From positions 1-60,641 of the forward strand of contig JAYXXD010000002.1 of the NCBI GenBank assembly GCA_036019775.1: a stretch of 60,641 bases of DNA, read 5' to 3'. Each line of letters begins with the position of its first letter. The stretch's first letter is position 1. Made by a program: the position numbers and the translations under genes. Below the pieces are notes generated by a model. It saw only the letters and a program-made list of their open reading frames with translations, searched no databases and was not told the DNA's origin. This DNA is from Thermoplasmatota archaeon (GTDB lineage: Archaea > Thermoplasmatota > Poseidoniia > Poseidoniales > Poseidoniaceae). Below, in pieces: positions 13,203 through 28,717 of the stretch.

Positions 13203-13241
13203 AGGGTCATCTAAAAGAACTACCCGCGTTGCGGTTTAGTC

Positions 13242-13721: not shown

Positions 13722-13722
13722 G

Positions 13723-14670: not shown

Positions 14671-14674
14671 TTTG

Positions 14675-14824
14675 CTACTTTTCGGCTTCTTCCTCGAGCA
14701 TTTGCCGAGCAAGTTTGATTTTTTGACCACGTTTGAAAAACGTGTACCAATGCCAAAAGCGGGCTGCAACAGCAAGTGGAAGAAAGAAACAGAACAGGAC
14801 GCCGAGAACAGTTTCGGATATCAT
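14675..14824 (-). CDS. Possible small (49-aa) single-TM protein, below the ORF-track size cutoff
   Basis: Hand translation gives MISETVLGVLFCFFLPLAVAARFWHWYTFFKRGQKIKLARQMLEEEAEK. This is a hydrophobic helix followed by a basic then acidic tail. It sits between guaA and tRNA-Asn. Confidence 0.3.
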   Translation of the reverse strand: MISETVLGVLFCFFLPLAVAARFWHWYTFFKRGQKIKLARQMLEEEAEK

Positions 14825-14856
14825 GCATTCACCTGATTACGTTTGGAGTTGAAATA

Positions 14857-14929
14857 CGCCGATTGTGGGGCTCGAACCCACGACCTTGGGATTAACAGTC
14901 CCACGCTCCACCAGCTAAGCTAAATCGGC
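14857..14929 (-). tRNA. tRNA-Asn (anticodon GTT), no encoded CCA
   Basis: The reverse complement folds as a cloverleaf: acceptor GCCGATT/AATCGGC, anticodon stem-loop TGGGA-CTGTTAA-TCCCA, T-arm GTGGG-TTCGAGC-CCCAC, discriminator G. Confidence 0.9.
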
Positions 14930-14972
14930 GAGTTTGGCCACTAACATCTCCTTTATGATGGCTTCCATCGAT

Positions 14973-16253
14973 TCAAGTCGTTGAGCATTCGCGAATTGTT
15001 ATACTTTCAAGAATCCTTGAAGCAACACCGACTTTATAATCTGAGATTGTAATTGCATCTTTCAATCGCTGAAGAAGATGAATGTTGAGTCCAAACGGTC
15101 CATCAAGCGTTAAGATTGCATCCCCCTCCTCAACCTTTGAACCAATATGGTGGTGAATCTCAATACCGATTCCATGATCAATTTCTTCGTCTTGCATCGA
15201 TCGACCAGCACCTGCTTCACAAAGCACCTGACCTATTGCGAGTGCATCCATATCAGCAACATAGCCTGATTGTTCAGATTGTATTGCGTATTGTTGAGGT
15301 GCACGTTCGAGTACACTCCATGGCTCATCAATGAGTTGTTGAGCAATCAAAGCATCAACCCCTTGACGTTCAAGCATCGATTTGAATTCATTCAATGCAG
15401 AGCCATTTGCAATCACTTCTGAAATGTCAAAACCCAATGCACTTGCTTGAGCATGAACAAGTTCCATGGTGTCAGCAGGCCCCTTTCCTTTGAGACAATC
15501 AATCGATTCAGCAATTTCATGACTATTTCCGAGCATGTTGCCGATTGGATGATCCATTTGTGTGAGCTGAGATGTGACATCGATTCCAAGTTCAGTACCA
15601 ACTCTGACCATTGACTGTGCGAGTTTACGTGCATCTTCTGAATGTTGCATGAAAGCGGCTCGGCCGTACTTGACATCCAGCACAAGTGCTTGAATTCCTT
15701 CAGCAGCTTTCTTTGAAAGAATTGATGCAGTAATCAATCCAATACACGGAACCGTGGCTGTAACATCACGAATCGCATAAAGAATCGAATCTGTTGGAGC
15801 AATTTCGTCGGTTTGACGAGAAATAAAACACGGATTGTTTTCCATCTCTTGAATGGTCAATCCAGTGTTGAACCCACGAATCGCCTCAAGTTTGTCAATC
15901 GTTCCACCAGTATGTGCTAGACCTCTTCCAGCCAACATCGGAACGATTGCTCCACAAGCACGTAGTGCTGGTGCAAGAATGAGGCTCATCTTATCACCAA
16001 CTCCTCCCGTTGAATGTTTGTCGATGGCTCCTTCCCGATGCGGTAGACGCTTTCCTTGTTCGAGCATAGCTTTGGTAAGGTAGGTCGTTTCTTCAGCATT
16101 CAAGCCATTGATTTGACACGCCATCAAAAAAGCACCAATTTGTTCATTTGGAATTTCGTGCAAATTCTGTATAAACCACTCAATCTCATTCTTTTCAAGA
16201 ATCAACCCATCACGTTTCTTTGCAAGTAGGCTTGGAATGTGCATGAGCATCAA
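14973..16253 (-). CDS. deoA: Thymidine/pyrimidine-nucleoside phosphorylase
   Basis: 426 aa, near-collinear by eye with E. coli DeoA. Blocks KKRDG, DKHSTGGVGDK, GRGLAHTGGTIDKLE, YAIRDVTATV, LITASILSKKAAEG. Confidence 0.85.
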   Translation of the reverse strand: MMLMHIPSLLAKKRDGLILEKNEIEWFIQNLHEIPNEQIGAFLMACQINGLNAEETTYLTKAMLEQGKRLPHREGAIDKHSTGGVGDKMSLILAPALRACGAIVPMLAGRGLAHTGGTIDKLEAIRGFNTGLTIQEMENNPCFISRQTDEIAPTDSILYAIRDVTATVPCIGLITASILSKKAAEGIQALVLDVKYGRAAFMQHSEDARKLAQSMVRVGTELGIDVTSQLTQMDHPIGNMLGNSHEIAESIDCLKGKGPADTMELVHAQASALGFDISEVIANGSALNEFKSMLERQGVDALIAQQLIDEPWSVLERAPQQYAIQSEQSGYVADMDALAIGQVLCEAGAGRSMQDEEIDHGIGIEIHHHIGSKVEEGDAILTLDGPFGLNIHLLQRLKDAITISDYKVGVASRILESITIRECSTT

Positions 16254-17242
16254 CTCTCATCAGCTGATGCTAGGCCAATTTCCAAGAGGCGTTGGTGCAG
16301 ATACGCTCCTGCAGTAATCGATGGATAATCTGCAACACCACTCGTTTGTTCAATGAACTCTTGTCGAGGCGTTAAATCAATTTCATTTCGAGGATGAACG
16401 AACATCGGCATCGAGAATCGTCGCTGTGTTGGATCTCCTGGATTGACAACTCGATGTGTTGTAGATTTGAACAAACCATTCGTAAGGTTCTGAATCATAT
16501 CTCCGGAATCAACAATAATTTGCTCATGATTTCCTTCAACATCAATCCAAGTTCCATCATGATCCATGACTTGAAGTCCTGCAGCGGTAGCGGTCATGAG
16601 TAATGTGATGAAATTGATATCTTCATGAGCTGCGGAACGAACCGCACCTTCTGGTGTTGAAGAATCCAATGGTGGGTAGTGGATGATACGCATAATGGTG
16701 TTTCCTTTCTCAGCCATTGAAGGAAGCCAATTGGAATCTTTTCCGAGATAGATGCTACAGGCAGAAAGAAGTTGATTTGAAATCGCTTCCATTTGATTGT
16801 AGAGGTTGTCGACCTTTTGCTCGAACTTAGGAATGTGTTCATTTGGCCATATGTTGATTGGATATTTGTTGTCCGTTTCGCTACCTTGCTGACCACGGCC
16901 TGTTTGCCAGAATTCTTTGAGGTCAGGTGCAGGATTGTCTTTCGCATGCTCAACACCAAAAGCCGTGTAACCTCGTTGGTGCGAAATCTCTGGCTTTGCA
17001 TACAATCGCTTCACAGATTCATCAAGCATGAAAAAAGATTCAGCTTCGTGATACGTTTCCTCAATCAAGGAGAGGTCAATGCCGTGATTGGTCAGCGCAA
17101 AGAAACCAATGTCTGCGAGTGAGTCGCCTACTGCCTGAATAAACGATTGAACGCGTTGTTCATCACCGGATAGGAAATCACTGAGATCAGCGATTGGTAA
17201 TGGACGGGTCAACGAATCACCTGGAATCTCGTAGTTTTGCAA
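16250..17242 (-). CDS. 2-oxoglutarate/Fe(II)-dependent oxygenase (isopenicillin-N-synthase-like family)
   Basis: N-terminal DIOX_N-like region (GFFALTNHGI). His-x-Asp...His facial triad context (AAHEDINFITLL ... STTHRVVNP). ATGA overlap with deoA. Confidence 0.8.
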   Translation of the reverse strand: MQNYEIPGDSLTRPLPIADLSDFLSGDEQRVQSFIQAVGDSLADIGFFALTNHGIDLSLIEETYHEAESFFMLDESVKRLYAKPEISHQRGYTAFGVEHAKDNPAPDLKEFWQTGRGQQGSETDNKYPINIWPNEHIPKFEQKVDNLYNQMEAISNQLLSACSIYLGKDSNWLPSMAEKGNTIMRIIHYPPLDSSTPEGAVRSAAHEDINFITLLMTATAAGLQVMDHDGTWIDVEGNHEQIIVDSGDMIQNLTNGLFKSTTHRVVNPGDPTQRRFSMPMFVHPRNEIDLTPRQEFIEQTSGVADYPSITAGAYLHQRLLEIGLASADES

Positions 17243-17957
17243 TCAATCGAAGCATTTCGAAATACAACCAAATGACTGTTACCATGACGCCGAAGGCACC
17301 CCACCACTCCTGTTGTTTGGGAGCCCCCATTCGAACGCCCGAATCAATCATTCCAAAATTTGAGATGAGCATCAAGGAAGCGATAGTAATGATGAACAGG
17401 CTAATGCCGATGCCAATTGGTCCGGATGAGTGTAGGAAAGGAACTGTCCACGGTGTGAGAAAGACCAGGAAGATGTTGATGAAATAGACAAGGAAAATCG
17501 ATCCTGCAAGTGTAAATACAATCTTGTTGAAAGTTGGCGTAGGTCGAAGAATCCCCACTGAATAGATTGTCAACATGCAGACGACAACAGCGAATGTAGC
17601 GAGTCCAGCCTGTATTGCGATGCCGGGATACGTCAACTCGAAAAAGAGCGTAAGTGGTCCTATGAAGAGGCCTTCAAGGGCGGCATATACAATGACAAAA
17701 GTTGCAGGTTCTGTAGGTCTGGAAAACCAAAGGTAGAACCCCATTCCAAATGTTGCAAACATGCCGAACATCATCATTGGGACAAGAAGCGTGGGCATGA
17801 TGTAGCCGAGTACAACCGATCCAACTGCACTTGCGGTTGCAATTCCGAAGAGAATTCCAGTTTTTTGCAATGTTCCTTCAAGTGTCATTCGGTCATTACC
17901 TTGAATCGTATTCCAAAATTTTGGTTGAAAGACAGGGTTCGTTGAGTTGTATGCCAT
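17217..17957 (-). CDS. BAX inhibitor-1/YccA family membrane protein
   Basis: About 7 TM helices with the typical charged C-terminal end (YFEMLRLIAKLRDSR). The start was trimmed to MAYNSTNPVF at 17957. The upstream part of the track ORF overlaps the neighbouring giant gene. Confidence 0.7.
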   Translation of the reverse strand: MAYNSTNPVFQPKFWNTIQGNDRMTLEGTLQKTGILFGIATASAVGSVVLGYIMPTLLVPMMMFGMFATFGMGFYLWFSRPTEPATFVIVYAALEGLFIGPLTLFFELTYPGIAIQAGLATFAVVVCMLTIYSVGILRPTPTFNKIVFTLAGSIFLVYFINIFLVFLTPWTVPFLHSSGPIGIGISLFIITIASLMLISNFGMIDSGVRMGAPKQQEWWGAFGVMVTVIWLYFEMLRLIAKLRDSR

Positions 17958-17997
17958 GTGTCTGCTTGGAGACGGTCCTTTGTGAAGGTTGCGCGGA

Positions 17998-20900
17998 TTA
18001 ACTGTGTTCAGCGACCTGTTGTTGGTAGTACTCTTCCAATTGGTCGAGTGTCCAACCATGGTCGAGGTACTGTTGCAACATTTCTTCAGTCCAACCGGGG
18101 AACCTCTCAAGGTCGTTGGCGAGAGGTGATGCTTCATCTTCACTTCGTCCATCCAAAACAGGCTGTTCCCATTCCGAGTTGGTTCCAACAACATCATCGA
18201 TGTGTTGTTCCGTAACCCAATCCTTTGTCGCCTCAGTTTCTTTGCGAGATTGAACGATACCATAGACCGCTCCAACGAGCAAGAGAAGGCCACCTAGCAT
18301 CAGAATCAACATGAAATTTTCTCCAAATCCTTCTTCGGCTTCTCCAGCAGCATCACCTGCTTTTTGATTTCGTTGATCGGAAGAACAACCGGAAACATCG
18401 GTTGGTGTTTCTGCAGGCGTATCCGGGCATTCATCATTCGCATTAAGCACACCATCTTGATCATCATCGACACTCGTTTGATTTGTTGTTCCGTTATTGG
18501 TATCAATTGGTTCGATACCACCGAGGTCGCAACCTAAGGCACTTGCTTCGTCAACACCATCTCCATCAGCATCAGCTAAGTTGATTGCATCCCTGGGCGA
18601 TACATCGTCGACATTTTGGTTAAGAGCAGTCGCTTGAGCCCAACTCACTTCAACAGCATCTGGAATACAATCTCCATCGGTATCTGAATTCAATGGGTTG
18701 CCTCCTAGATTGTATTCATCGAGGTTGGATAGACCATCATCGTCGTTGTCCATATCTGCCTCAAGTTCGCCATTGTGCATCGAAATCGTTCGATTCAATC
18801 CATTGTTGACTTCAAAGATATCCGGCATTCCATCATTGTCCGTGTCTGTGACATTATCAAGACGATTCCAATCGGCATACCATGATTCAATGAATGGAGC
18901 TGCAACCACTGTTGAAGTGATAATGAGGCCCATTTCTCGATTGCGAACCATGGCGGAGTCTCCCCAATTGATGCTTGAAATGAGAACGGACTCTCCATCA
19001 ACAATCGCGCCCTTGTTGTGCAATTTCATAACATCATCATCCTCGCTCATGATGACAGCGGAAGCATCCCAACCATTGGTGATGTTCCAATCGTTGTTGA
19101 TTCGATCAACAACATCTTGAATGTCCTCATCGAGATAGGCTCCGTTGATAATGAGGCGTATCGATACTCCATCAGTAGCGGCTTGTTCCAAAGCTGAAAC
19201 CAGTGGATTTTCTCCCCAGCCCCATTTCCAATCCAAGTCAAGGTACTGAAGCGAAAGTAGGATTTCACTATCAGCAGATTGAATCAATTCAGTCAAGCCT
19301 TCAACACAATCATCAGGACATGTGAGGAGTTGGCCACTGAATGTGCCTGTGAGGGCATCAGCAGTCGCCTGATCAATGACTTGGGCATCGGGGATGACAT
19401 AGGAAATTGTCGGTTGAGTCGAGGAAACTGCTTGCACATGTCTTGAGTTTTCATCGAAAGCCATGTTCGCTTTGACATTGGCCGCAAGTTGTGCACTGTC
19501 GACTAGTATACCCCAGTCACGGTTACCTCGATCACCTTCGTATGGGAGTGAAGATGGTTTCCAGTTTCCAGAACCAATCCAAACCGAGGTATCGTCACGG
19601 ACTGCTACCTTCGAATGGAGGTAGAGGTAAGGGTCGTCTCCTGAGCCTCCAAACCAATGAACTTCGACACCAGCCGACTTCAATGCGTACGCATACGCTT
19701 TCTGTGCCTGATTATCGTTCGAATTCCACCAATCCTCGGGTTCATTGAGGACCACAACAACATCAACTCCTCGGTTTTTCGCATCGATTAGTGCCTGAGT
19801 AATTTCACTGGATTGTAGGATATACAGGTGAACGTGGAGAGAAGTCTGAGCCCCATCAATCCAGTTAATGATGTCCATCAAACCATGTTCGGGTGCAATA
19901 AGTGGAGTGATCTTAGTTGCATCATCAAATCCAGAGTCTTGACAGAAATCGCTTGCGCCCAATCGACCCCATCGCTGATGCCAATCAACGGATTGGTTCG
20001 TGTCTGTCAAGAGTCCGCATCCATCGCCCCGATATAGGATAAGATTGTCAATACCACTTACTGGCTCTGAAAGGGAGACGCCACTCCAGCCTTCGCTGTC
20101 AACGGGCCCGTTCTTGTAGACGATGGTATCTGCGATGACGCCCGTTGGATGGATGAGTTGCAAGGCCATTCCGCTGTCGAGCAGGAAGATTGGATTCTCC
20201 ATTGCAATACCCATGTCGATGATGTTTCCATCTTCGAACAATTCCAAAGCGGCCACATCGTTGGAGAGTTTTACCGACGAACCTGCGTCAAGCTGCAAAT
20301 TCGTAATGTCCGATTCAAACGATGATCCGTCCGAAGCGATCCGCTTAAGTTTCCATCCATTGAGGATTGCGGATTCAGTACCAATATTGGTAAGCTCAAA
20401 GAATTCCATTTCAGTTGATATTGAGGAGACTCCATCCCACATGATCGAACTAAATTTGATGTCATCAATGGATGCCATCATACTTGCATCTGGTTCTGGA
20501 GACCCTGGAGTTGGCCACATGAATTCAATCCATTCTTGATTTGTCTCGTTGTATCCGTAGGTTGCACAAGTCGTACTTAGATGTGAAGCAGGAGGTGCTA
20601 TTGTGAGGACTAGTTCACCATCTGGATTGAGGACATTCATGGTGTTTACATCGTCCAAATCAGGGCCGAAGATGTCGTGCTGAAGTTCGACAGCAACTCG
20701 CTCCATCGGCGAAAGAATTGCATCTGATGTGGAATCGTAAAGCATGTTCGCATCGATAAACTGACGTCCCATCAGAGGATTGGTAGCATAATCAGCATGC
20801 AATATCCATCGACTCAAATTGATCTCACTGCTTCCATTATTGTACAACTCGATCCAATCGGCTGCGGGTTGGAATGTTGGAAGGTCGCAAGCGGTTGCAA

Positions 20901-22953
20901 TTTCGGTGACGAGGAGATCTTCGCTTCCTGAATAGGCAGGCCATACTGGATTTTCCTCGCCCGGTGTTGACCAAGCACTGTTGAGCCAATCGATCTCGCT
21001 CCACGTAGTGGATGATGATGGTGCATTGGTTCCGGATGGACCTGCTCCTGCGTGTGTTTCTGTATGGTTGATGAGGGATACGCCTTCGAGCGTATGTGTC
21101 CATTGCGCAGAATGGACCGCTACTCCGTTGCCATCGTAAAGGAAAATTTGGTCAGGTGTCGTGTGTTTCAGATAGAATTGTGACGTACCATTCAGAGCGA
21201 TGAGGGTCGTTTCTCCAGGCTGAAGAACGGTGTCAGATTTCGATGGCATGTTGTATTGGTGGAGAATGAGCGTTCGTCCCGTTGCAGAGAACCTCCAACC
21301 GGCAACATCGACTTCTTCTGCACCCATGTTTCGGATTTCGAGCCACTCTCCATCGGGGTAGGATGCGGAATCGCTTCCAACAGCATCTGGCAGAACTTCT
21401 GTGATTTTCACATCACCTGTCGTTGGTGTAGGTGTTGGTTCGGGTTGACCGGGAGAGGGTGTGACAGATGGAGTCCATGGGTCATGGTAATTTTGTCCAC
21501 GCACCAATGAAATGTCTGGCCCGTAGTTGGTCGTGTAATGTCCCATGTCGGCAATGGTTCCAGACGAATCTCGAACCACGACATGGTTGTAGTTATCCCA
21601 GAGACGTGTGTCGGCTGTAAATTCAACAAGTCTTCGTTCACCAGCATTGATCATCGTACTACCTTGTGAACTGTTGACAACGATAGAACCAGGGTCGAGG
21701 AACGTAACATTGCCCATGCCATCAATAATCGACCAGCCATTCAAATCAACATCAATTGTCCCTGTATTGTAAAATTCAACCCATTCACCATCAGGTGCAG
21801 AGGTTCCATCCATTGTGCTGACAGGGTAGATTTCGTTCAAGACGACATCGCCTGTTGAAGTAATTTCATCGATTTTTGGTGCGTTCGTTGCATTTGGAGT
21901 CGGATAGGTTGAGTATTGCCACATTGCTCCATTTGGAGATGCTTCAAGAGAAAATCCTGGTTGATTGGAACTCCACATGACCTCATGGCCGATGCTTCCG
22001 TTTGCAAGGTAGAGTCTCAGAGTTTCCTGTCCATTGTTCAAAACACCACTGTTTGACGTTGAGTTGACCGCAACAATTCTTGTTTCTTGAGGATGGATAA
22101 GAAGTGATGACACATCACTCGATGCTCCAACCAAATGACCTTCATCCAGCAGAATCATATTTCCTGCAATATCCTGCAACCAGTATCCTGTAAGGTCGAT
22201 GGTAGAAGTGCCGTTGTTGTACAGTTCAACCCATTCACCTCCGGGCCAAGTTTCGTTGTCATAACTTGGCCATGGGTCTGCCATGACTTCGTTAATGATG
22301 ACATCACTTTGTGCATACGTTGGACCACCAGTGCCTCCGCCTCCACCGGAGTTGATGGAACCGGGAGTCGGATTGGATGTAGGTATCCAGTCGTTGTAAG
22401 CATTTGCAGGGTCCTCTTCAAGACTTACACCACTTGAACTGGAATTCCATGTCGCTTCATCAACCCAACTGTTCGATGAATCGTAGAGCGTCATGAAATC
22501 ATTCGAGTTTGCAACATAGAAAACCGAATTTGGTGTTCCGTTCCGAGCCACAATCATGTAATCGCCTGGAGCGATTGTGTAGGTTGATGGATTGCTTGCA
22601 TTGTAACCAACGATGGAAGCAGAATCTAGCGTCAGTACTTTCGATGCCTTGTTTGAAAAATACCAGTTGCGAACATCGACAGACGCTGTTCCACCGTTGT
22701 ACAATTCGAGCCACTCGCCATTTGGCCATGCTGCATCATCGTACCCGTTTGGATTCGGCATAACTTCGTTGATGCAGACTGAACCTCCACAAGGCTGAGC
22801 GCGAGCCGAAACTGCTTCAGAAGGTTCGACAAATGGCGTAAGCGGTACCAACATCATCAGGCAAATAAGGAAAATCGGCTCAAATCGCATATGGCATCGT
22901 CGAATCAATCCACCGCCTTCCCCCTCATATCTTTTGGTGCGGGGAATCCTCAT
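17998..22953 (-). CDS. Giant tail-anchored surface protein: signal peptide, six lamin-tail domains (LTD), two PLD-type HKD domains, TSP3-like Ca-binding repeats, TM anchor, ~85-aa cytoplasmic tail
   Basis: 1651-aa ORF. An alternative start is MRFEPIFLI at 22890. Six copies of the LTD pattern (I/V)NE(V/I)...PDGEW(V/L)E(L/F)YN.G...(V/I)(D/N)L.GW. HKD motifs LHSKVAVRDDTSVWIGSGNW (His codon 19615-19617) and LHNKGAIVDGESVLISSINW (His codon 19018-19020). Asp-rich loops DTDNDGMPD and DTDGDCIPD. TM FMLILMLGGLLLLVGAVYGIV. Confidence 0.8.
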   Translation of the reverse strand: MRIPRTKRYEGEGGGLIRRCHMRFEPIFLICLMMLVPLTPFVEPSEAVSARAQPCGGSVCINEVMPNPNGYDDAAWPNGEWLELYNGGTASVDVRNWYFSNKASKVLTLDSASIVGYNASNPSTYTIAPGDYMIVARNGTPNSVFYVANSNDFMTLYDSSNSWVDEATWNSSSSGVSLEEDPANAYNDWIPTSNPTPGSINSGGGGGTGGPTYAQSDVIINEVMADPWPSYDNETWPGGEWVELYNNGTSTIDLTGYWLQDIAGNMILLDEGHLVGASSDVSSLLIHPQETRIVAVNSTSNSGVLNNGQETLRLYLANGSIGHEVMWSSNQPGFSLEASPNGAMWQYSTYPTPNATNAPKIDEITSTGDVVLNEIYPVSTMDGTSAPDGEWVEFYNTGTIDVDLNGWSIIDGMGNVTFLDPGSIVVNSSQGSTMINAGERRLVEFTADTRLWDNYNHVVVRDSSGTIADMGHYTTNYGPDISLVRGQNYHDPWTPSVTPSPGQPEPTPTPTTGDVKITEVLPDAVGSDSASYPDGEWLEIRNMGAEEVDVAGWRFSATGRTLILHQYNMPSKSDTVLQPGETTLIALNGTSQFYLKHTTPDQIFLYDGNGVAVHSAQWTHTLEGVSLINHTETHAGAGPSGTNAPSSSTTWSEIDWLNSAWSTPGEENPVWPAYSGSEDLLVTEIATACDLPTFQPAADWIELYNNGSSEINLSRWILHADYATNPLMGRQFIDANMLYDSTSDAILSPMERVAVELQHDIFGPDLDDVNTMNVLNPDGELVLTIAPPASHLSTTCATYGYNETNQEWIEFMWPTPGSPEPDASMMASIDDIKFSSIMWDGVSSISTEMEFFELTNIGTESAILNGWKLKRIASDGSSFESDITNLQLDAGSSVKLSNDVAALELFEDGNIIDMGIAMENPIFLLDSGMALQLIHPTGVIADTIVYKNGPVDSEGWSGVSLSEPVSGIDNLILYRGDGCGLLTDTNQSVDWHQRWGRLGASDFCQDSGFDDATKITPLIAPEHGLMDIINWIDGAQTSLHVHLYILQSSEITQALIDAKNRGVDVVVVLNEPEDWWNSNDNQAQKAYAYALKSAGVEVHWFGGSGDDPYLYLHSKVAVRDDTSVWIGSGNWKPSSLPYEGDRGNRDWGILVDSAQLAANVKANMAFDENSRHVQAVSSTQPTISYVIPDAQVIDQATADALTGTFSGQLLTCPDDCVEGLTELIQSADSEILLSLQYLDLDWKWGWGENPLVSALEQAATDGVSIRLIINGAYLDEDIQDVVDRINNDWNITNGWDASAVIMSEDDDVMKLHNKGAIVDGESVLISSINWGDSAMVRNREMGLIITSTVVAAPFIESWYADWNRLDNVTDTDNDGMPDIFEVNNGLNRTISMHNGELEADMDNDDDGLSNLDEYNLGGNPLNSDTDGDCIPDAVEVSWAQATALNQNVDDVSPRDAINLADADGDGVDEASALGCDLGGIEPIDTNNGTTNQTSVDDDQDGVLNANDECPDTPAETPTDVSGCSSDQRNQKAGDAAGEAEEGFGENFMLILMLGGLLLLVGAVYGIVQSRKETEATKDWVTEQHIDDVVGTNSEWEQPVLDGRSEDEASPLANDLERFPGWTEEMLQQYLDHGWTLDQLEEYYQQQVAEHS
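20074..22782 (-). repeat. Array of six tandem LTD (lamin tail domain) modules inside the giant CDS (protein-level repeat)
   Basis: Module starts were read at about aa 58, 218, 370, 515, 680 and 832 of the ORF. Each has the NE-x...GEW-x-E-x-YN core. Confidence 0.7.
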
Positions 22954-22957
22954 AATT

Positions 22958-24460
22958 TCAGATGAAACCGAAACTATCTGCCATCTGTGCGAACGTGTAA
23001 ATCATGATGGGAACGAGGATGATTCCCATTCCGTGGCTTCGTCGAATTCCGATACGTGGGGGCATGAGTCCAAGAATGGTTCCCACAATCAGAACGCCAA
23101 TACCTACAAACCCTGTCGAAAGCCAAACCAATGCAGTGACGAAAATGATGACGCCCATCACCATGGATTGCAAAGGTATCGCTGCATGGAGTCTAAGCAT
23201 ACCTTTACCTACGATTTTCATGATCGGCATCGCCATAATTCCAGCTGCAAGCGTTACGGCGAGAAGTCGAACAAAATCAGCAGTAGGTTGAGTTGAGTTC
23301 CAAGTTTCAATTGGATACATCATTTTCAGAGCGAGCGTAGCACCTGAACGTGATCTGCCAATGATGTACAAAAATCCGAGAACCATTACAGTCACTGCAG
23401 TGTTCACAGCTGACAGGATTGCAATGACTTCCAAGTCCTGCTTCGTTTGCGGACCTTCATATCCGTCCTCTGCTTCTGCAACTGCAATTTCCAACAATTC
23501 CTCATCGCTGAGTTCAGTCAAGCGTCGAGTTTCCCAGTCCATGCCATATCCTTCTTTCCCTTGCACTTTGGCTGCGACATTGCGACCTCCCATTACCAGA
23601 ACGGTAGCTTGAGATGCGGTCATACCCGGCAACACGCCCATGCTTGCACCTGCTACAGCGGACCAGAAACACGGTGCAATGAGGGGTTTAACAGGGGGCA
23701 AATCCCAGTTCTCTTTTTGGGGGGGGAGATGGCTTGTTGTTGCATAGATGTCGAGGAGATTGGCAATGCCAAACAAACCGGCCAAACTTGGAAGCAACAG
23801 GGAAGGCGATGGCATCCCAACTGGGCTATCGACCGGCAGTTCAAACACAGCCCATCCATACAATCCAGCAAGCAAAAAGAAGACTGTTGCAGCAAAGAAT
23901 CCAGCCAGTCGACTGTCCTTTCCAAGGCGCTTTCGTGTAAGCTTTTGCACCCATTTCGGCCAATCAAGACGAGTTGTTTCAGTAGCAAGAAGAAGAAGTG
24001 ATATCACGAGAAGAATAACTGGAAGCCAATCTCTCAGCCCGTCGTACCAATTCAATTCAGGGCCAAAGGCAATTCGAGCAACAACGATGAGGGGTAGAGA
24101 TAGAAACAGGCCAAGTTGTGACCCTCTCGCTGACCATGCAACACCACGAGCAGCATTACCAGCAAGCAACATCCGATGGCCTGGAAGTAACGACAACGCT
24201 GTATCTCCATCAGGTGCGCCAATCAACGCTGAAGGGATATAATTCAAAAACGTGTGAACGGTTCCTGTCGATACGATAATGGCCGCCACTGCTGACAGAG
24301 GTATGCCTAATTCCAGTAGTCCTGGTGAGAGTGCGAGTAGAATCAATGCGACGTTGTTAACGTGGAAACCGGGAATCAATCCAGTAAGAGATCCAAGCAA
24401 GACTCCGAAGAACAAGGCGCCCAAGAGCCACCAGAGTTCGTAGAAGTAGGCTTCAATCAT
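22958..24460 (-). CDS. TctA-family (DUF112) polytopic membrane protein / putative permease
   Basis: 500 aa with about 12 TM helices. It has the duplicated G-x-(I/L)PG motif typical of TctA/DUF112 (GSLTGLIPGFHV and GASMGVLPGMTASQ). Gaps are 8 nt to the upstream gene and 4 nt to the downstream ORF. Confidence 0.6.
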   Translation of the reverse strand: MIEAYFYELWWLLGALFFGVLLGSLTGLIPGFHVNNVALILLALSPGLLELGIPLSAVAAIIVSTGTVHTFLNYIPSALIGAPDGDTALSLLPGHRMLLAGNAARGVAWSARGSQLGLFLSLPLIVVARIAFGPELNWYDGLRDWLPVILLVISLLLLATETTRLDWPKWVQKLTRKRLGKDSRLAGFFAATVFFLLAGLYGWAVFELPVDSPVGMPSPSLLLPSLAGLFGIANLLDIYATTSHLPPQKENWDLPPVKPLIAPCFWSAVAGASMGVLPGMTASQATVLVMGGRNVAAKVQGKEGYGMDWETRRLTELSDEELLEIAVAEAEDGYEGPQTKQDLEVIAILSAVNTAVTVMVLGFLYIIGRSRSGATLALKMMYPIETWNSTQPTADFVRLLAVTLAAGIMAMPIMKIVGKGMLRLHAAIPLQSMVMGVIIFVTALVWLSTGFVGIGVLIVGTILGLMPPRIGIRRSHGMGIILVPIMIYTFAQMADSFGFI

Positions 24461-24468
24461 GTTATCAC

Positions 24469-26211
24469 CTACGATTGTTCGATGTATTCCTGACGGTCAC
24501 TCGTTCCATCGCCATCAGTATCCTCAGTGTTGGAACTCGTACCAAATGCGGATTCAAGTGCGTCGCTCAAGCCGTCGTTGTCCTTGTCATCGACATCTGC
24601 GTCATTCAAGGTGTAGACCATCGACAACGAATTGGCATCCTCTGTTTGTCGAAGTCGACCCTCCCAGGTCATTGCAGTGCCGATATGCAATTCATCCAAA
24701 CCGATGCAGTTGTTGACGGCTTGCAAACGAATCCGCTTATCGCTGCCCGGTTCAGAAAGGTACCACGTACCGTTTTCCTCGGTTGCTAATCCATTGATTC
24801 GAACAATCTTGTTCTTATCGTATCCCCAGTTTGTTGCTCCGTCTGACCAAAGCAGGTTCATTGGGCTCGCTTTTTGCCCTTCAGAGTACTCATGAACCAA
24901 CAATTCTGCACGCATGTTCTCATCATCCCATGCCACTGAAACATTTGCAATGATTTCTTGACCCGCTTCAAGCCAAGATGATCTGGGTCCGGGAATCGTT
25001 ACGGCGATGCTTGTCCAACCTGGAGTGTATCCCGGAGAATCGACGAAGTATGCTCCTTCATCTTCGACACTCGGCTCGAGTGCGTATTTCATGTAAGCAG
25101 AAACAACATAACGTTTCGTGGAATCTTGTAAAGCCTCACTAGGGTTTGCGCTGAGGAGTAGTAACAAATCGTCGATACTTGATGTCGCTGTTAACTCATC
25201 GTTCATTGAGCCACCTTTGTCAAGACACCACGATGAAATTGCGGTATTCCAAACCAAACGTCCCCGCATTTGTATCGCAAGTCCCTCCCATTGTTCCGAA
25301 TTACTGAGATCTTCATCGCTGGGTAGGACACATAGCGGGGATCCAGCAGAACCTGAAAGCCACCAATCACCGTTTTCGATTGACAGTACGCCAGCAACAT
25401 CGACGGTACTTCCTGCCTGATACATCCATGTGGATTGACCAGCCCAGTCAAGCAACGGAATTTCAACCGGGTGATTTCGATCGAGAAGAATCTCTGGTCC
25501 TTGAACGTGGATGCTCCATCGAAGGTCTCGTTGTTGGTACGAAAGAATGCCTTGCACTGTAACTTTCGATCCTGATTCAATCCACTCACCGGTGGATGAA
25601 TGCATGATCATGTGCATTTGATGTTCAGAATTGCCGTAGGTTGGATGATCTCCGAGGTATGCGCTGTTAAACGATACATCGGGTGCAATTGATTCAGAAA
25701 GAAAACCAGTGAGTTGAATGACTTCACCAGCGTATGCCTCAGGTTCAAGAGCGACATCTGAAATCGAAAGTAATGGTGCATCTGGTATGTCTTCTTGATC
25801 CCAATTCATAGCTCCAGCACCAAGTGCTTGGAGCCACATGCGTCCTTCGTACTCGATGACGTCACCAATCACAGTTACATTCGTGCCGATAGGGGGCAAT
25901 TCCGCAGGGCGATACCATCGGAGTTCGACGACTCCTGTTCCGTCATCGATAATCGCATCGAGACGATCATCTCCTGAATTGTATGGATCTTCAACCCAAG
26001 AGATGAGCTGACCCTCTACTTTGACAACCTCATTGATGTAATCTGTGAGTTCATCAACGTCGACAATCGATGGTTCTCGAACCATTGCATACCAATTCAA
26101 GGTTGCTACAAGAAATAATGAAATCGCAAACATGACCCATAAACGAGGTCCGTTGGTTTCGGGGTCGTCGGTCGATAATCGAGCAAGGAAGCCTTTCAGA
26201 CCATCTGCCAT
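24469..26211 (-). CDS. N-terminally anchored extracellular protein with about five OB-fold-like repeats and a C-terminal TSP3-like Ca-binding motif
   Basis: 580 aa. TM LWVMFAISLFLVATLNWYAMV. Repeated pattern V.V.G.L....(D/N)G.W.L......(I/L).(L/V)........G..V.V.G.L. An example is VKVEGQLISWVEDP...IIDDGTGVVELRWY...GTNVTVIGDVIEYEGRMWL. C-terminal motif DKDNDGLSD...DTDGDGTSD. Confidence 0.55.
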   Translation of the reverse strand: MADGLKGFLARLSTDDPETNGPRLWVMFAISLFLVATLNWYAMVREPSIVDVDELTDYINEVVKVEGQLISWVEDPYNSGDDRLDAIIDDGTGVVELRWYRPAELPPIGTNVTVIGDVIEYEGRMWLQALGAGAMNWDQEDIPDAPLLSISDVALEPEAYAGEVIQLTGFLSESIAPDVSFNSAYLGDHPTYGNSEHQMHMIMHSSTGEWIESGSKVTVQGILSYQQRDLRWSIHVQGPEILLDRNHPVEIPLLDWAGQSTWMYQAGSTVDVAGVLSIENGDWWLSGSAGSPLCVLPSDEDLSNSEQWEGLAIQMRGRLVWNTAISSWCLDKGGSMNDELTATSSIDDLLLLLSANPSEALQDSTKRYVVSAYMKYALEPSVEDEGAYFVDSPGYTPGWTSIAVTIPGPRSSWLEAGQEIIANVSVAWDDENMRAELLVHEYSEGQKASPMNLLWSDGATNWGYDKNKIVRINGLATEENGTWYLSEPGSDKRIRLQAVNNCIGLDELHIGTAMTWEGRLRQTEDANSLSMVYTLNDADVDDKDNDGLSDALESAFGTSSNTEDTDGDGTSDRQEYIEQS

Positions 26212-26302
26212 GACTCGTCCTGAGGCTCAATGAAGAATATCCTTTCCATCAGCCTTTTTGCAAAGAGATGCCTTGAAATGATAGTCATGGACAGCATTTA
26301 CC

Positions 26303-27610
26303 ATGCGAGACCGGGTTATTCGTGATGAAATTCACCGAGATATCTTGGTTCCCGGGCACCATGCGCGCATTATCGATACACAAGAGTTTCAACGGTTGAG
26401 GAACATTCAACAACTCTCAACGTGTGAATTTGTCTTTCCATCGGCGACCCACACTCGATTTGCTCATTCACTAGGGGCCTATCACCTTGCAGGAGAGTTG
26501 ACCTCCTCGTTGCAGGAAGTTCAGCCAGGAATCTTATCCAATTCAGACGCTGAACTTGTACAACTGGGTGCTCTTCTTCACGACATTGGCCATCCACCCT
26601 ATTCTCATCTTCTGGAAACACCAGAAGTTTTCGCAACATTCCACTCACATGAACACTGGGGTAGAATCCTTCTCGAAAGTGACGACTCCGAGATTGGCAA
26701 GGTGTTGACAGATGTACTTGGTGAAGACCGGAAACGACGTCTTTTCGCGCTGCTCGACGGTCTAAACGAATGCAATGGCGAACCAATAGCTCCGTTTCTA
26801 AAAGAGATCATCAGCAGTCAACTCGATGTTGATCGTATGGATTACATGATACGTGATCAAGCAAATACAGGTGCACAGATTGGTGGCTTTGACAGTGCCA
26901 GAGTTATTCGGGCACTAAGGGTGAATGATGAGGGTCGTTTGTATGTAAAATCATGGGGATTGCCTGCAATTGAGGCCTACTTAGTAACCAGATATCACAT
27001 GTACAATCAAGTCTACTTTCACAAGGTCAATATGTTGACACAATCGTATCTTGTTCGAATGCTCGCCCGAGCCAGAGAATTGGTACTCAGCGAACAAATT
27101 GAACTTGATCGAGAGATTGAGGACATGTTGACGAACAAATTCTTGACTCCAGAACAATACGCTTCCTTGCACGATTCGCATGTTAAGGTTGCAATCAGAC
27201 GCTTTGCAGAGCATGATGATGCCATTTTGTCAGGGTATGCTCAGCGCCTCCTTGCTCGAAGGGATTATCACAAATCACTCAGGATTCCCTCATTGACGTC
27301 GGAAATGTTTCAGTCAGTTCAAGCAGAAGTTGTCTCGTATTTGCGTAAGGAAGGATTCGATCCAGTACACGATTTGATAACAGCATCGATTCGAAAACGA
27401 GGATACATGCCCTATGTTCAAGGTATTATCTTGGAAGATGGCCGGGATGCTGCTGAACATTCACCTCTTATCCGTTCGTTAACACAAACAGATGAACGAA
27501 TCCTCGTGTTTGTTCCAGAACGAATCCGCGATGCCTGTGAGGCTTTGGTTCGTTCGAAAACCAAACCGTCTCAATCGTCATTGGCAATGTTCGATTCGGC
27601 AGACTCATGA
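26303..27610 (+). CDS. HD-domain phosphohydrolase (dGTPase/SAMHD1-like dNTP triphosphohydrolase family)
   Basis: Blocks RLRNIQQL, THTRFAHSLGAYHL, LLHDIGHPPYSH, DVDRMDYMIRD, characteristic of the COG1078-type HD family. Confidence 0.85.
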   Translation: MRDRVIRDEIHRDILVPGHHARIIDTQEFQRLRNIQQLSTCEFVFPSATHTRFAHSLGAYHLAGELTSSLQEVQPGILSNSDAELVQLGALLHDIGHPPYSHLLETPEVFATFHSHEHWGRILLESDDSEIGKVLTDVLGEDRKRRLFALLDGLNECNGEPIAPFLKEIISSQLDVDRMDYMIRDQANTGAQIGGFDSARVIRALRVNDEGRLYVKSWGLPAIEAYLVTRYHMYNQVYFHKVNMLTQSYLVRMLARARELVLSEQIELDREIEDMLTNKFLTPEQYASLHDSHVKVAIRRFAEHDDAILSGYAQRLLARRDYHKSLRIPSLTSEMFQSVQAEVVSYLRKEGFDPVHDLITASIRKRGYMPYVQGIILEDGRDAAEHSPLIRSLTQTDERILVFVPERIRDACEALVRSKTKPSQSSLAMFDSADS

Positions 27611-27778: not shown

Positions 27779-28717
27779 GTGAGCACGATGTCAACCCGAA
27801 AGAGCACCTTCACCGTTCTAGTGATATACCTTGCATCCTTATTGCTTGTGGCTGTACCTGCTCAAGCACAAATTCCTACGGCTGCTGTTTCAATCACATG
27901 CCAACCAGCTGAAATCAAGGTTGACGTCAAGCCCGGGTCAACCCTTGTAGGCTTCACAACATGTACAGCATCCAACCCAACCGCATACATTGAGAAAATC
28001 GCCCTTTCCGTTACTTCCGATGGCCTGGCTGCTGCAGCCCCGGGTGATATTTACGTCGGTGGTGGGCAAGACGAAGACTTCCAGGTTGTTGTTCGAGCTC
28101 AACCATTCATGACGATGCAAGCACGTAGCCTTGTCATTCAGGGAAGCGTTCAGGAAATCAACGGTCTACCACCTGCAAATCAAGCAACTTCTGGTGCATC
28201 AATGATTGTCTCCATTACACAATTCGCTCTCCTGCAAGTAGAAGCTGTCGAACCGTTCGTCCAACTCATGCCAAAGACAGACAAGGACTTTGAATTCAAA
28301 GTTTACAACCTTGGAAACCAATTCGATTTCATGAAGGTTGGAATTTCAGAAAACTCCCGTGAGTCGCTTGAAGATGCCGGATTTAACATCAACATCCCAA
28401 TCAGCAAGGTGAACGTCGAGCCTATGGTTGCTCCTGCGAAAGTACGAATTCAGGTGCGCACACCCAAGACCCAAGGATGGACTGATGCATACCACACGCT
28501 TGATTTCTACGCTGAATCCGACTTCTCGTGCAAGAACGGAGGCTGCGATCGAGAATCACAAATGATTACCATCTACGTCCGAGGTATTTATCTCCCAGGG
28601 TTTGAAGTGATTCCAGCACTTTCGATGGTTGCCTTGGCTGCTGCTGTGGCAGGTCGGCGATTCATCAATGCTGACGATGAAGAAGACGAGTGGCGTGAAG
28701 CCGCCCCTGGCCTGTAA
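27779..28717 (+). CDS. Secreted beta-sandwich protein with a PGF-CTERM-like C-terminal anchor
   Basis: GTG start. Signal peptide LVIYLASLLLVAVPAQAQ. C-terminus LPGFEVIPALSMVALAAAVAGRRF followed by an acidic 17-aa tail. Confidence 0.7.
   Translation: MSTMSTRKSTFTVLVIYLASLLLVAVPAQAQIPTAAVSITCQPAEIKVDVKPGSTLVGFTTCTASNPTAYIEKIALSVTSDGLAAAAPGDIYVGGGQDEDFQVVVRAQPFMTMQARSLVIQGSVQEINGLPPANQATSGASMIVSITQFALLQVEAVEPFVQLMPKTDKDFEFKVYNLGNQFDFMKVGISENSRESLEDAGFNINIPISKVNVEPMVAPAKVRIQVRTPKTQGWTDAYHTLDFYAESDFSCKNGGCDRESQMITIYVRGIYLPGFEVIPALSMVALAAAVAGRRFINADDEEDEWREAAPGL

Follow-up and report, generated by a model that had tools for sequence, protein, structure and literature searches.

The closest described counterpart of the locus analysed here is found in Methanococcus maripaludis, in which the genes MMJJ_13020, encoding an OB-fold protein with one transmembrane (TM) segment, and MMJJ_13030, encoding a TctA-like protein, are adjacent (Fonseca 2023, PMC10133366). 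In-frame deletion of either of these genes, or of MMJJ_16440, which encodes a membrane-anchored thermonuclease, abolishes transformation, and complementation rescues it (PMC10133366). A TctA homologue is also essential for transformation in Methanoculleus thermophilus, in which no clear OB homologue was found (PMC10133366). Moreover, Helicobacter pylori NucT, a nuclease of the PLD family, has been implicated in transformation as well as in purine salvage (PMC5714352).

This paper describes a trio of genes encoding an OB-fold protein, a TctA-like permease and a putative nuclease in a 60,641-nt stretch of DNA (the window) from a member of the Poseidoniaceae. The first-pass annotation of this DNA knew of no archaeal system of such composition, which has to be corrected, as the OB-fold/TctA-like/thermonuclease set of M. 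maripaludis fits it (Fonseca 2023, PMC10133366). In both archaea an OB-fold protein with one TM segment is encoded immediately upstream of a TctA protein (~11 TM segments), the families and their order being the same, a tethered extracellular nuclease is the third component, and TctB and TctC are lacking. The present locus differs in its putative nuclease, which is of the two-HKD PLD/Nuc type on a stalk of six lamin-tail domains (LTDs) instead of the staphylococcal type, and in the position of the nuclease gene, which is part of the cluster here and lies apart from the OB and TctA genes in M. maripaludis. Five OB folds and Ca-binding repeats further set its OB protein apart from the small methanogen counterpart. 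We consider it probable that the products of the trio work together at the cell surface to capture, cut and import DNA from outside, as the Marine Group II form of the methanogen OB-fold/TctA-like transformation machinery. We read it as a self-contained variant of the archaeal DNA-uptake machinery, with the nuclease in the same cluster, and such a variant would be new.

Results

Gene organization and putative promoters

The ORF list placed three minus-strand genes within the span given by the first-pass annotation: gene 1 (24469..26211, 580 aa), gene 2 (22958..24460, 500 aa) and gene 3 (17998..22953, 1651 aa). The spacers measure 8 nt (gene 1/gene 2) and 4 nt (gene 2/gene 3), the latter becoming 67 nt if gene 3 starts at M22 (22890), which gives a protein of 1,630 aa. 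This later start is more likely, because a signal-peptide-like segment opens at M22 and the called gene 3 counterparts in relatives begin 40-80 nt after TctA; the segment can also be aligned with the N-terminal end of a distant homologue. The candidate BRE/TATA element of gene 1, AAAGGATATT (26236..26245, minus strand), is located 25-34 nt upstream of the start codon, within the 91-nt divergent intergenic region common to gene 1 and an HD-domain gene, and homologous loci carry an A/T-rich element equally far from the ATG. A second, TATA-like element, AAAAGATATGA (22925..22935, minus strand), precedes the M22 start of gene 3 by 35-45 nt and could act as an internal promoter, so that the trio possibly comprises two transcription units, a point against the proposed joint function.

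On the same strand, the gene for a BaxI-like membrane protein (17217-17957) starts 40 nt after the gene 3 stop and overlaps a 2OG-Fe(II) oxygenase gene (16250-17242), which has a 4-nt overlap with a gene of the pyrimidine-nucleoside/thymidine phosphorylase family (14973-16253). These three genes (14973..17957), assigned by Pfam and sequence, may belong to one unit with the trio, and their run is collinear in all relatives, with BaxI absent in the deeper lineage L164. The divergent neighbour (26303..27610, plus strand), mentioned for context, encodes an HD + HD_assoc_2 protein related to dNTP triphosphohydrolases (Pfam) and adjoins gene 1 in all Poseidoniales loci. A block of ~25 kb around the trio is collinear as a whole in all Poseidoniales loci examined, and synteny within the Poseidoniales is therefore uninformative about linkage of the trio. 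No pilus genes were found in the window.

Gene 1 encodes a predicted multi-OB surface protein

Hydropathy analysis revealed a single N-terminal hydrophobic segment in the gene 1 protein (residues 26-44), predicting a short cytoplasmic N-terminus and a TM anchor at residues ~22-44 (26080-26148, minus strand). The anchor is followed by a conserved OB1-OB2 core (25501-26040, minus strand) that is common to ~210-aa partners in other archaea, a Poseidoniales-specific extension comprising OB3-OB5 (24592-25419, minus strand), and a C-terminal Asp-rich Ca-binding repeat of the TSP3 type (24472-24591, minus strand; TSP3_bac E 1.8e-4, below cut-off). Five small beta-barrels are present in the AlphaFold2 model (mean pLDDT 76.8), whose best Foldseek/PDB matches were without exception tandem-OB nucleic-acid binders (p204 HIN 6e-11, RADX, CTC1, RPA70, POT1, TEBP-alpha, LEF-3 and bS1). 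Hydropathy and the predicted structure agree with the anchor and the approximately five OB-fold-like repeats noted in the first-pass annotation. The protein is strongly acidic (96 D+E vs 32 K+R) and contains ~18 invariant Trp residues.

Gene 2 encodes a member of a separate TctA clade

The gene 2 product belongs to the TctA family (PF01970, E 8.6e-46) and is a polytopic membrane protein with ~11 hydrophobic segments by hydropathy; the earlier description as a 12-TM TctA/DUF112 protein holds for the family, and no firm count of 12 was obtained. Its clade corresponds to archaeal COG1784/arCOG04469, one relative being annotated as COG1784/K08971. A search of 1.84 billion representatives retrieved only 1,412 relatives (E<1e-3), and the clade therefore stands apart from the bulk of bacterial TctA. 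The protein carries an acidic insertion of ~45 aa (residues ~299-345), and the profile of the OB insertion of other TctA relatives gave no match in it. Identity across the Poseidoniaceae is 85-99% in gene 2, compared with 54-96% in gene 1 and 46-87% in gene 3. With the TctABC system the locus shares the Pfam family of gene 2; it differs from that system in lacking TctB and TctC, in its separate clade, and in a TM-anchored OB partner that replaces the soluble binding protein.

Gene 3 encodes an LTD-PLD surface protein

On the minus strand, gene 3 specifies a signal peptide (22810-22890, hydropathy), six LTDs (19984-22788; Pfam LTD x6, E 4e-73), a two-HKD PLD/Nuc-like module (18856-19896; Pfam PLDc_2 x2, E 3.6e-38), Asp-rich Ca-binding repeats (18364-18855), a TM segment (~18253-18315, hydropathy) and a cytoplasmic tail of ~85 aa (18001-18252). 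The six LTDs and the two HKD motifs reported earlier were recovered by Pfam and motif search; the N-terminal signal peptide, C-terminal TM segment and cytoplasmic tail make the product a predicted type-I surface protein, not a strictly tail-anchored one as had been stated. Like gene 1, the protein is strongly acidic (251 D+E vs 67 K+R). The first HKD motif, LHSKVAVRDDTSVWIGSGNW (residues 1113-1131; 19543..19617, minus strand), contains H1113, K1115, D1120 and GSGN, and the second, LHNKGAIVDGESVLISSINW (residues 1312-1330; 18946..19020, minus strand), contains H1312, K1314, D1319 and SSIN and is covered by the Pfam PLDc active-site match (residues 1311-1333). Neither of the HxK(x)4D...GSxN / SSxN motifs varies among 12 homologues, the least similar of which is 48% identical.

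Profile comparison of the PLD halves with the PDB yielded Nuc (1.9e-13), Zucchini/MitoPLD (8.8e-10) and NucT (3.6e-9), and in NCBIfam the module matched DrmC (1.6e-23) better than ClsB (2.6e-8), all below the curated family cut-offs. The closest superfamily members thus appear to be nucleases (Nuc, NucT, Zucchini, DrmC) rather than phospholipases or cardiolipin synthases, and we infer that the module is a nuclease. MitoPLD was initially reported to be a lipid hydrolase. Salmonella Nuc (1BYR), H. pylori NucT (6EHI), Zucchini/MitoPLD and DrmC of the DISARM system share the HxK(x)4D...GSxN motif with gene 3 and are its best PDB, NCBIfam and PADLOC matches, and NucT is membrane-associated as gene 3 is tethered to the surface. 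These enzymes carry one HKD per chain and form homodimers, whereas gene 3 has both HKD halves in one chain, embedded in an LTD-rich surface protein of 1,651 aa. Shewanella ExeM likewise joins LTDs to a secreted or anchored nuclease, of which the catalytic domain is of the endonuclease/exonuclease/phosphatase instead of the PLD type (PMC6085458).

DrmC belongs to the DISARM anti-phage system. As the best matches of the PLD module in both PADLOC and NCBIfam are to DrmC, incoming foreign (viral) DNA could be destroyed on the cell surface by the nuclease together with the OB array, with no import. We hold such a defence role to be highly improbable, since no other DISARM component is present, genes 1 and 2 have no PADLOC match, gene 3 is extracellular and tethered, unlike DrmC, and the conserved permease would be left without a role; the DrmC matches themselves fall short of the family cut-off.

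Association of TctA with OB domains and nucleases in other genomes

Directly upstream of TctA, a co-directional ORF of ~200-236 aa matching the gene 1 profile was present in 45 of the 62 metagenomic TctA loci whose upstream sequence was long enough, ending between 8 nt inside TctA and 90 nt before it. Pfam detected tRNA_anti-codon (OB-fold nucleic acid binding) in 34 of 42 such small partners and, sub-threshold, DUF4131 (ComEC TM + OB module) in 20 of the 42. The gene 1 core (residues 26-238) is homologous to this widespread TM + double-OB partner (hhalign of the two alignments, 98.6%, E 8e-16). In 42 of 210 near-full-length TctA relatives, the place of this partner is taken by an insertion of ~80-130 aa in one TctA loop, and the insertion is homologous to the first OB domain of the small partner (hhalign 97.1%, E 6.6e-11). 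We regard OB-TctA as an ancient unit. Methanocalculus has a stand-alone TctA, with which the lack of a clear OB homologue in M. thermophilus agrees.

TctA has repeatedly and independently become physically linked with OB domains, and likewise with nucleases of four unrelated types. A C-terminal SNase domain is fused to TctA relatives in five 50%-identity clusters, three of which also contain Excalibur, and upstream of one such fusion lies a gene for a TM + 2x OB protein (Pfam score above cut-off); other fusions amounted to one weak OB (BOF) and one weak DUF3149 match (E 3.6e-4). On a TARA archaeal contig the OB partner has an N-terminal, signal-less YqaJ/lambda-exonuclease domain ahead of the TM helix, so that an enzyme for processing DNA ends would lie on the cytoplasmic side of the membrane. 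In another Thermoplasmata clade, the second with this arrangement, an SP-LTDx2-PLDx2-PKD-TM protein, smaller than gene 3 and homologous to it, directly follows TctA, and the flanking genes differ from those in Poseidoniales. Most non-Poseidoniales loci have no nuclease adjoining TctA. Co-conservation of the trio, uninformative within Poseidoniales, is thus backed by OB-TctA and TctA-nuclease couplings in unrelated contexts and fusions.

These couplings bear on a reading in which the three genes are unrelated neighbours, adjacent through Poseidoniales collinearity, with TctA as a carboxylate transporter, the OB-like protein binding glycans or another surface ligand, and the LTD-PLD protein acting as a phospholipase or adhesin. 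The ~25-kb collinear block deprives family-level synteny of value as linkage evidence, arCOG04469 was predicted in 2015 to be a carboxylate transporter (PMC5898192), invariant Trp residues and strong acidity as in gene 1 are also seen in carbohydrate-binding modules, and matches of the PLD module to ClsB/cardiolipin synthase exist. This reading is nevertheless very unlikely, considering the OB-TctA pairing amid unrelated flanks, the OB insertion within TctA, the TctA-SNase fusions, the LTD-PLD protein after TctA among other neighbours in the second clade, and the methanogen genetics (PMC10133366).

An extracytoplasmic OB fold, a polytopic conduit and a nuclease, partly fused in TctA relatives, also recall bacterial ComEC, and the OB domains resemble RPA32/STN1, the templates also behind ComEC OB-fold models. 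ComEC combines DUF4131, Competence and a metallo-beta-lactamase nuclease, whereas no Competence (PF03772) or metallo-beta-lactamase domain occurs here and the membrane part has the unrelated TctA fold, making ComEC an analogue and not a member of the same family.

Discussion

The first-pass annotation had read the trio as binding (OB), cutting (PLD) and importing (permease). Our results support this reading, and none of the three outcomes it had named as contrary (a 580-aa protein devoid of OB folds, a PLD module grouping with phospholipases or cardiolipin synthases, lack of co-conservation) was obtained. For Marine Group II we infer substrate, transport direction and physiological role as follows. 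The gene 1 protein, anchored by its one N-terminal helix, would bind nucleic acid with its five external OB folds and hand it to the transporter. Gene 3 would provide a six-LTD stalk, tethered by the C-terminal helix and bearing a pseudo-dimeric Nuc/NucT-like nuclease with two HKD motifs, which could cut captured DNA to make ends or single strands, or trim the part that is not imported. The TctA-like permease and the OB protein would together form the membrane conduit, through which polymeric DNA, and not its breakdown products, would pass, and the imported DNA could serve recombination or nutrition. The genes are probably functionally orthologous to those of M. maripaludis, as suggested by common membership of PF01970/COG1784 and by agreement in gene order and in the architecture of the partner.

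Several considerations count against DNA import. To our knowledge, passage of polymeric DNA through the small-anion-carrier fold of TctA has never been shown, methanogens included. Strong acidity such as that of the gene 1 and gene 3 proteins is not typical of proteins that bind DNA, save where divalent cations mediate the contact. Extracellular OB folds can bind other ligands, and there were weak matches to YgiW/BOF and CcmE. The sub-cut-off scores of the PLD matches, the original description of MitoPLD, the scarcity of nucleases beside TctA outside Poseidoniales and the lack of pilus genes in the window weigh in the same direction.

Nutrient scavenging alone offers another explanation, to which we assign a rather low though appreciable probability. 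The tethered nuclease would break down DNA or RNA outside the cell into mono- or oligonucleotides, and TctA, as an ordinary secondary carrier for salvage and catabolism, would import these small anions (or phosphate), with the OB protein as extracytoplasmic receptor in place of the missing TctC and no entry of intact DNA. TctA-family members are also present in DPANN archaea (Pacearchaeota, Woesearchaeota), a group whose capacity for nucleotide biosynthesis is generally low, and this favours scavenging. So does the adjacency of one distant TctA to adenine deaminase and two phosphoribosyltransferases. The TctA family comprises small-anion carriers, archaea lack TctB and TctC (PMC5898192; PMC10133366), and NucT serves purine salvage besides transformation (PMC5714352). 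DNA-degradation loci of Candidatus Izemoplasmatales resemble the trio in co-locating genes for nucleic-acid binding, nuclease and transport, pairing LTD/OB nucleases with nucleoside transporters, and differ in being bacterial and catabolic (PMC8289736). The gene run extends into the pyrimidine-nucleoside phosphorylase, with the HD dNTPase-like gene, guaA, purE and purD in the flanks, but these nucleotide-metabolism neighbours form part of a large block, the collinearity of which has other causes, and the cluster contains no 5'-nucleotidase or phosphatase. Moreover, loss of the methanogen OB or TctA protein abolishes uptake of a transforming plasmid, which must enter as a polymer (PMC10133366), and fusion of a cytoplasmic YqaJ/lambda-exo-type domain to the OB partner is sensible only if DNA ends reach the cytoplasm. 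With uptake of polymeric DNA as the preferred reading, Marine Group II, which are abundant archaea of the ocean, probably import DNA from their environment.

Gene Organization and Domain Composition

The three minus-strand genes that the first-pass annotation placed at 17998-26211 were recovered with exactly the same positions and sizes, i.e., gene 1 (24469-26211; 580 aa), gene 2 (22958-24460; 500 aa), and gene 3 (17998-22953; 1,651 aa), separated by intergenic gaps of 8 nt (genes 1 and 2) and 4 nt (genes 2 and 3). The domains it had assigned were also detected with Pfam, namely TctA (E 8.6e-46) in gene 2, and six lamin-tail domains (LTD; E 4e-73) and two PLDc_2 domains (E 3.6e-38) in gene 3. 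The closest relatives of the window genes are Poseidoniales MAG proteins, in agreement with the source of the window in the Poseidoniaceae (Marine Group IIa), and a CDP-archaeol synthase is also encoded in the window.

Gene 1 encodes a protein with a single transmembrane (TM) segment according to hydropathy, lies immediately upstream of and co-directional with gene 2, and has a relative in 202 GTDB species genomes. Apart from a weak C-terminal TSP3 calcium-binding repeat, no Pfam family was assigned to it. Its AlphaFold2 model, built with 25 homologues (mean pLDDT 76.8), places five small beta-barrels after an N-terminal helix, and essentially all of the top 50 Foldseek matches of this model in the PDB are tandem-OB nucleic-acid binders, including p204 HIN (6e-11), RADX, CTC1, RPA70, POT1, TEBP-alpha, LEF-3, and ribosomal bS1. 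The OB folds that had been called from the raw sequence are therefore correct according to both model and structural search. Approximately 18 tryptophans are invariant in gene 1.

Gene 3 contains a signal-peptide-like N-terminal segment from M22 and a C-terminal hydrophobic segment that is followed by a tail of approximately 85 residues. On sequence grounds, M22 (position 22890) is the more likely start of this gene, because the N-terminus of a distant homologue aligns at this residue, and because the corresponding genes of relatives begin 40-80 nt after TctA. A mechanically called BaxI-like ORF (17217-18293, minus strand) overlaps the 3' end of gene 3 by approximately 300 nt; this overlap appears to be an artifact of ORF calling, since the BaxI Pfam match begins at residue 119 and an in-frame ATG at 17957 provides a plausible start. 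Both surface proteins are extremely acidic, with net charges of about -64 (24469-26211) and about -184 (17998-22953), which is unexpected for DNA-binding proteins.

The PLD Module of Gene 3

Two copies of HKD, the catalytic motif of the PLD superfamily, are present in gene 3 (H1113/K1115/D1120 followed by GSGN, and H1312/K1314/D1319 followed by SSIN), and both copies of the HxK(x)4D(x)6G(S/G)xN motif are unchanged across 12 homologues with identities as low as 48%. In a profile search against the PDB, the module matched Nuc (1.9e-13), MitoPLD (8.8e-10), and NucT (3.6e-9), with a phospholipase at only 7e-5, and the single-sequence and profile searches together yielded only Nuc, NucT, and Zucchini/MitoPLD as solved relatives, with phospholipase far behind. 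Similarly, DrmC (1.6e-23) and NucT (2.3e-14) scored better than ClsB (2.6e-8) in NCBIfam, all below curated cut-offs, and in NCBIfam and PADLOC combined DrmC and NucT outranked the cardiolipin synthases. The PLD domains, for which clustering with phospholipases or cardiolipin synthases had been considered, are thus closer in sequence to nucleases, with matches below cut-offs. Since this holds for every nuclease-family match, the sequence comparison places the two PLD halves in clade proximity to nucleases and not within a nuclease family. A reading as a surface-defense system was rejected, since genes 1 and 2 had no match in PADLOC and the PLD module matched DrmC and Mko only below threshold. 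An AlphaFold2 model of this region from the single sequence had a pLDDT of 40, too low to be of use. Nuc, NucT, Zucchini, and DrmC have one HKD motif per chain of approximately 150-200 aa and are active as homodimers, whereas gene 3 carries two HKD halves in one chain, as a pseudo-dimer, inside a protein of 1,651 aa.

The TctA-Like Family

Gene 2 is 85-99% identical across relatives, a far higher conservation than that of either surface protein; a search for close homologues of TctA recovered nothing below 83% identity. Relatives beyond the order were obtained by a TctA search of representative sequences, followed by a profile of the distant members and analysis of their locus contexts. Only 1,412 relatives were found among 1.84 billion representatives, and these form a small clade apart from ordinary bacterial TctA. 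Named relatives belong to Thermoplasmatota, Methanosarcinaceae, Methanocalculus, Hydrothermarchaeales, and DPANN, and no named Methanococcus or Thermococcus members were among those retrieved. No solved structure of any TctA relative was detectable by sequence.

The TctABC system combines TctA with TctB and the solute-binding protein TctC, whereas only TctA was found in the trio locus: TctB and TctC had no Pfam match among the scanned window ORFs of at least 150 aa, a set that left out a 235-aa ORF (2194-2901) and shorter ones. TctB proteins are only about 150 aa long. According to the literature, archaea lack TctB and TctC (PMC5898192, PMC10133366), and the members of arCOG04469/COG1784, as which one gene 2 relative is annotated, are mostly stand-alone genes for which a carboxylate transporter function has been guessed (Makarova et al., 2015, PMC5898192). 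One distant stand-alone TctA (locus L091:1161-4217) adjoins genes for adenine deaminase and two phosphoribosyltransferases, which may represent a purine-salvage context, and the gene downstream of it has a weak match to RMMBL (beta-CASP RNase).

The OB Partner of TctA beyond Poseidoniales

Of the metagenomic TctA loci, 62 extend 700 nt or more upstream of the gene, and 45 of these 62 contain a co-directional ORF there that matches the gene 1 profile. The ORFs are approximately 200-236 aa in length, except in three Poseidoniales-type loci with partners of 585-659 aa, and their 3' ends fall anywhere from 8 nt within TctA to 90 nt ahead of it. The small OB partners consist of one TM helix and two OB domains, and half of them (21/42) have a tRNA_anti-like match in Pfam. 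DUF4131 was matched by 20 of the 42 (best E 2.9e-7), the first member remaining below the cut-off (18.8 versus 31.6 bits). Gene 1 itself is without a DUF4131 match in Pfam, and its core is homologous to partners matching PF01336. Profile-profile alignment connected the small partners to residues 26-238 of gene 1 (98.6% probability, E 8e-16), which indicates that gene 1 corresponds to the conserved partner extended by three more OB folds and a calcium-binding tail. Downstream of TctA, no conserved partner was found in 27 diverse loci, which contained only unrelated genes such as those for GAPDH and acyl-CoA dehydrogenase.

Moreover, 42 of 210 near-full-length TctA relatives carry a loop insertion of 80-130 residues at roughly residues 170-290 (P0437, P0436, and about 40 others), which is homologous to the first OB domain of the partner (hhalign 97.1%, E 6.6e-11). 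The loci fetched for two such OB-insertion TctA proteins contained no separate upstream OB gene. Judged from these homologies, OB and TctA form one unit. An OB domain placed inside TctA recalls the internal OB module of ComEC, and DUF4131 is the TM and OB module of bacterial ComEC (PMC5031224).

Predicted Nucleases Attached to TctA-Like Proteins

In the 47 relatives with 500 aa or more, the additional Pfam domains were SNase (five proteins), Excalibur (three), a BOF OB fold (one, weak), and DUF3149 (one, weak, E 3.6e-4). The SNase domain is C-terminal and follows two extra hydrophobic segments in P0327 (L085:3510-5651), P0334, P0366, P0380, and P0375, and three of these five fusions contain the calcium-binding Excalibur domain. 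Some of the TctA-SNase fusions are located on contigs of 2-5.6 Mb, and the L085 fusion has a PQQ dehydrogenase and a c-type cytochrome as neighbors, which suggests a bacterial host, so that the TctA-like clade may not be purely archaeal. In the locus of one TctA-SNase-Excalibur fusion, the gene located 15 nt upstream encodes a TM segment and two OB domains, with a Pfam score above the cut-off. SNase was not detected by Pfam in the trio or in the scanned window ORFs.

In a TARA archaeal contig (L090:27-1505), the OB partner itself carries a nuclease domain: a signal-less N-terminal YqaJ/lambda-exonuclease domain (E 7.9e-24) is followed by a lysine-rich stretch, a TM helix, and a double-OB ectodomain. 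This order would place the exonuclease on the cytoplasmic face of the membrane. The same marine contig encodes TiaS and archease.

A second Thermoplasmata clade encodes an OB-insertion TctA followed directly by a protein of 879-896 aa with a signal peptide, two LTDs, two PLD domains, PKD, and a TM segment, which is homologous to gene 3 (E 6e-29; PLD profile 7e-41). The genes upstream differ between the two examples of this clade, and differ from those of Poseidoniales, so the TctA-LTD/PLD pairing does not merely reflect inherited Poseidoniales synteny. Apart from the known fusion, metagenome loci outside Poseidoniales contained no PLD, LTD, or SNase within 6 kb of TctA. In one Thermoplasmata MAG, TctA is preceded by a gene (L174:1985-3931) for a polytopic membrane region of approximately 400 aa followed by an Exo_endo_phos domain; it was not counted as a nuclease, its best architectural match being PGAP2IP/CWH43-like, and its product may be either a nuclease or a lipid-remodeling enzyme. 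Counting the unlinked thermonuclease of Methanococcus along with PLD, SNase, and YqaJ in the loci described here, the OB-TctA pair has acquired nucleases of four unrelated families.

Genomic Neighborhood of the Trio

Among the 80 GTDB species loci, all those with a sufficiently long contig have the three genes side by side, as do deeper lineages. Collinearity includes a choice-of-anchor-T gene and an HD-domain gene upstream, and BaxI, a 2OG-Fe oxygenase, and a pyrimidine-nucleoside phosphorylase downstream; it persists at 48-49% identity, and in a deeper lineage whose gene 1 is 37% identical. Co-conservation of the three genes is therefore borne out as adjacency; as proof of their linkage it was rejected, because purD, CarS, and the AglB giant are as collinear as the trio in Poseidoniales loci. 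With the whole neighborhood equally collinear, co-conservation at the family level does not discriminate and says nothing on function.

Several neighboring genes encode nucleotide-metabolism functions (12588-16253, 26303-27610, and 32594-33856), including purE, a GMP synthase C-domain, pyrimidine-nucleoside phosphorylase, an HD dNTPase-like protein, and purD. A GMP-synthase-like gene also precedes a distant TctA (L157), and this clustering near TctA may be coincidence. The gene at 27779-28717 (plus strand), beside the HD gene in all Poseidoniales loci, matches the NCBIfam "choice-of-anchor T" model (E 1.1e-88) and is without a Pfam match. An ORF of 3,219 aa (33869-43528, plus strand) combines an STT3/AglB oligosaccharyltransferase domain near its N-terminus with CarboxypepD_reg repeats further on, an unusually large fusion that is kept in relatives as a gene for 2,200-3,200 aa. 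It is followed at 43585-51808 (plus strand) by genes for a subtilase of 401 aa, a beta-helix/Ig-like surface protein of 1,465 aa, and a STAND-like protein of 837 aa with AAA_16 and TPR domains.

Discussion

To our knowledge, archaea lack ComEC, and a single genetic study in methanogens provides the only lead on how DNA crosses the archaeal membrane. In Methanococcus maripaludis, MMJJ_13020 (OB, one TM), the adjacent MMJJ_13030 (TctA-like), and MMJJ_16440 (anchored thermonuclease) are each essential for transformation, as determined by transposon screening, clean deletions, and complementation, and the TctA-like protein was proposed to be the archaeal DNA transporter (Fonseca et al., 2023, PMC10133366). 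Methanoculleus thermophilus likewise requires its TctA homologue for transformation and has no clear OB homologue (PMC10133366), matching the stand-alone TctA that was found in the related Methanocalculus. This published system contradicts the initial view that no archaeal system of this composition had been described. Both modules consist of a TctA-family protein with an OB-fold, single-TM gene immediately upstream, whereas the third component is an anchored staphylococcal-type thermonuclease in M. maripaludis and a predicted anchored nuclease of the different, PLD-type family in the trio. The Competence (PF03772) and metallo-beta-lactamase domains of ComEC are absent from the three trio proteins according to Pfam. 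Bacterial LTD nucleases and "DNA-degradation loci" are known (PMC6085458, PMC8289736); the ExeM type combines LTD with an endonuclease/exonuclease/phosphatase domain, whereas gene 3 combines six LTDs with a PLD-type module. In the literature, no follow-up on the TctA-like protein was found after 2023, and nothing was found on this locus in Marine Group II.

The proposed sequence of binding (OB), cutting (PLD), and import (permease) appears to be supported overall by the comparative evidence and the methanogen precedent. The most economical reading is that the trio would represent a version, complete in itself, of the archaeal DNA-uptake machinery of OB protein, TctA, and nuclease, in which a PLD-type enzyme would have replaced the nuclease and its gene would have joined the cluster, and the OB receptor would have been greatly extended, perhaps to reach past a thick surface layer, as implied by the many giant surface proteins encoded nearby. 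The trio is thus not a categorically new system, and represents a variant of one that was recently discovered and is still poorly understood. Import of polymeric DNA is favored over import of its breakdown products, since the methanogen mutants are deficient in plasmid DNA uptake and one lineage carries a putatively cytoplasmic YqaJ fusion. Caution is warranted, as TctA-type carriers are known only for small anions, the gene run of the trio continues into a nucleoside phosphorylase, and both surface proteins are strongly acidic; orthology of the trio to the methanogen transformation genes should likewise be assumed with caution. Uptake of DNA as genes and as food would not be mutually exclusive, as illustrated by the PLD-family NucT of Helicobacter pylori, which has been implicated in both transformation and purine salvage (PMC5714352).

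At the level of sequence, the case for TctA-like proteins as the archaeal counterpart of ComEC is strengthened by conservation of the pair, by insertion of an OB domain into TctA, by fusions with nucleases, and by the LTD-PLD protein of a second clade, which add independent comparative evidence to a lead that came from a single genetic study of methanogens. Conservation of the OB-TctA pair spans Thermoplasmatota, family members occur in DPANN and other archaeal lineages, and the natural fusion proteins appear suited to structural work. A broader reading, to which we give somewhat less than an even chance, is that the TM-anchored OB protein and the TctA-like protein constitute a general archaeal DNA translocase, analogous to ComEC, and that Marine Group II takes up polymeric DNA. 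Such a translocase would have a fold unrelated to that of ComEC and would repeatedly recruit OB domains and nucleases by insertion, fusion, and adjacency, and Marine Group II would take up polymeric environmental DNA via a self-contained operon with a giant tethered PLD-type nuclease. Marine Group II is uncultured, belongs to the most abundant archaea of the surface ocean, and dominates the archaeal plankton. Extension of the system to this group makes DNA uptake by uncultured cells directly testable, with gene exchange or the acquisition of phosphorus and nucleotides as possible purposes, and the broader reading, if true, would imply natural competence in uncultured planktonic archaea.
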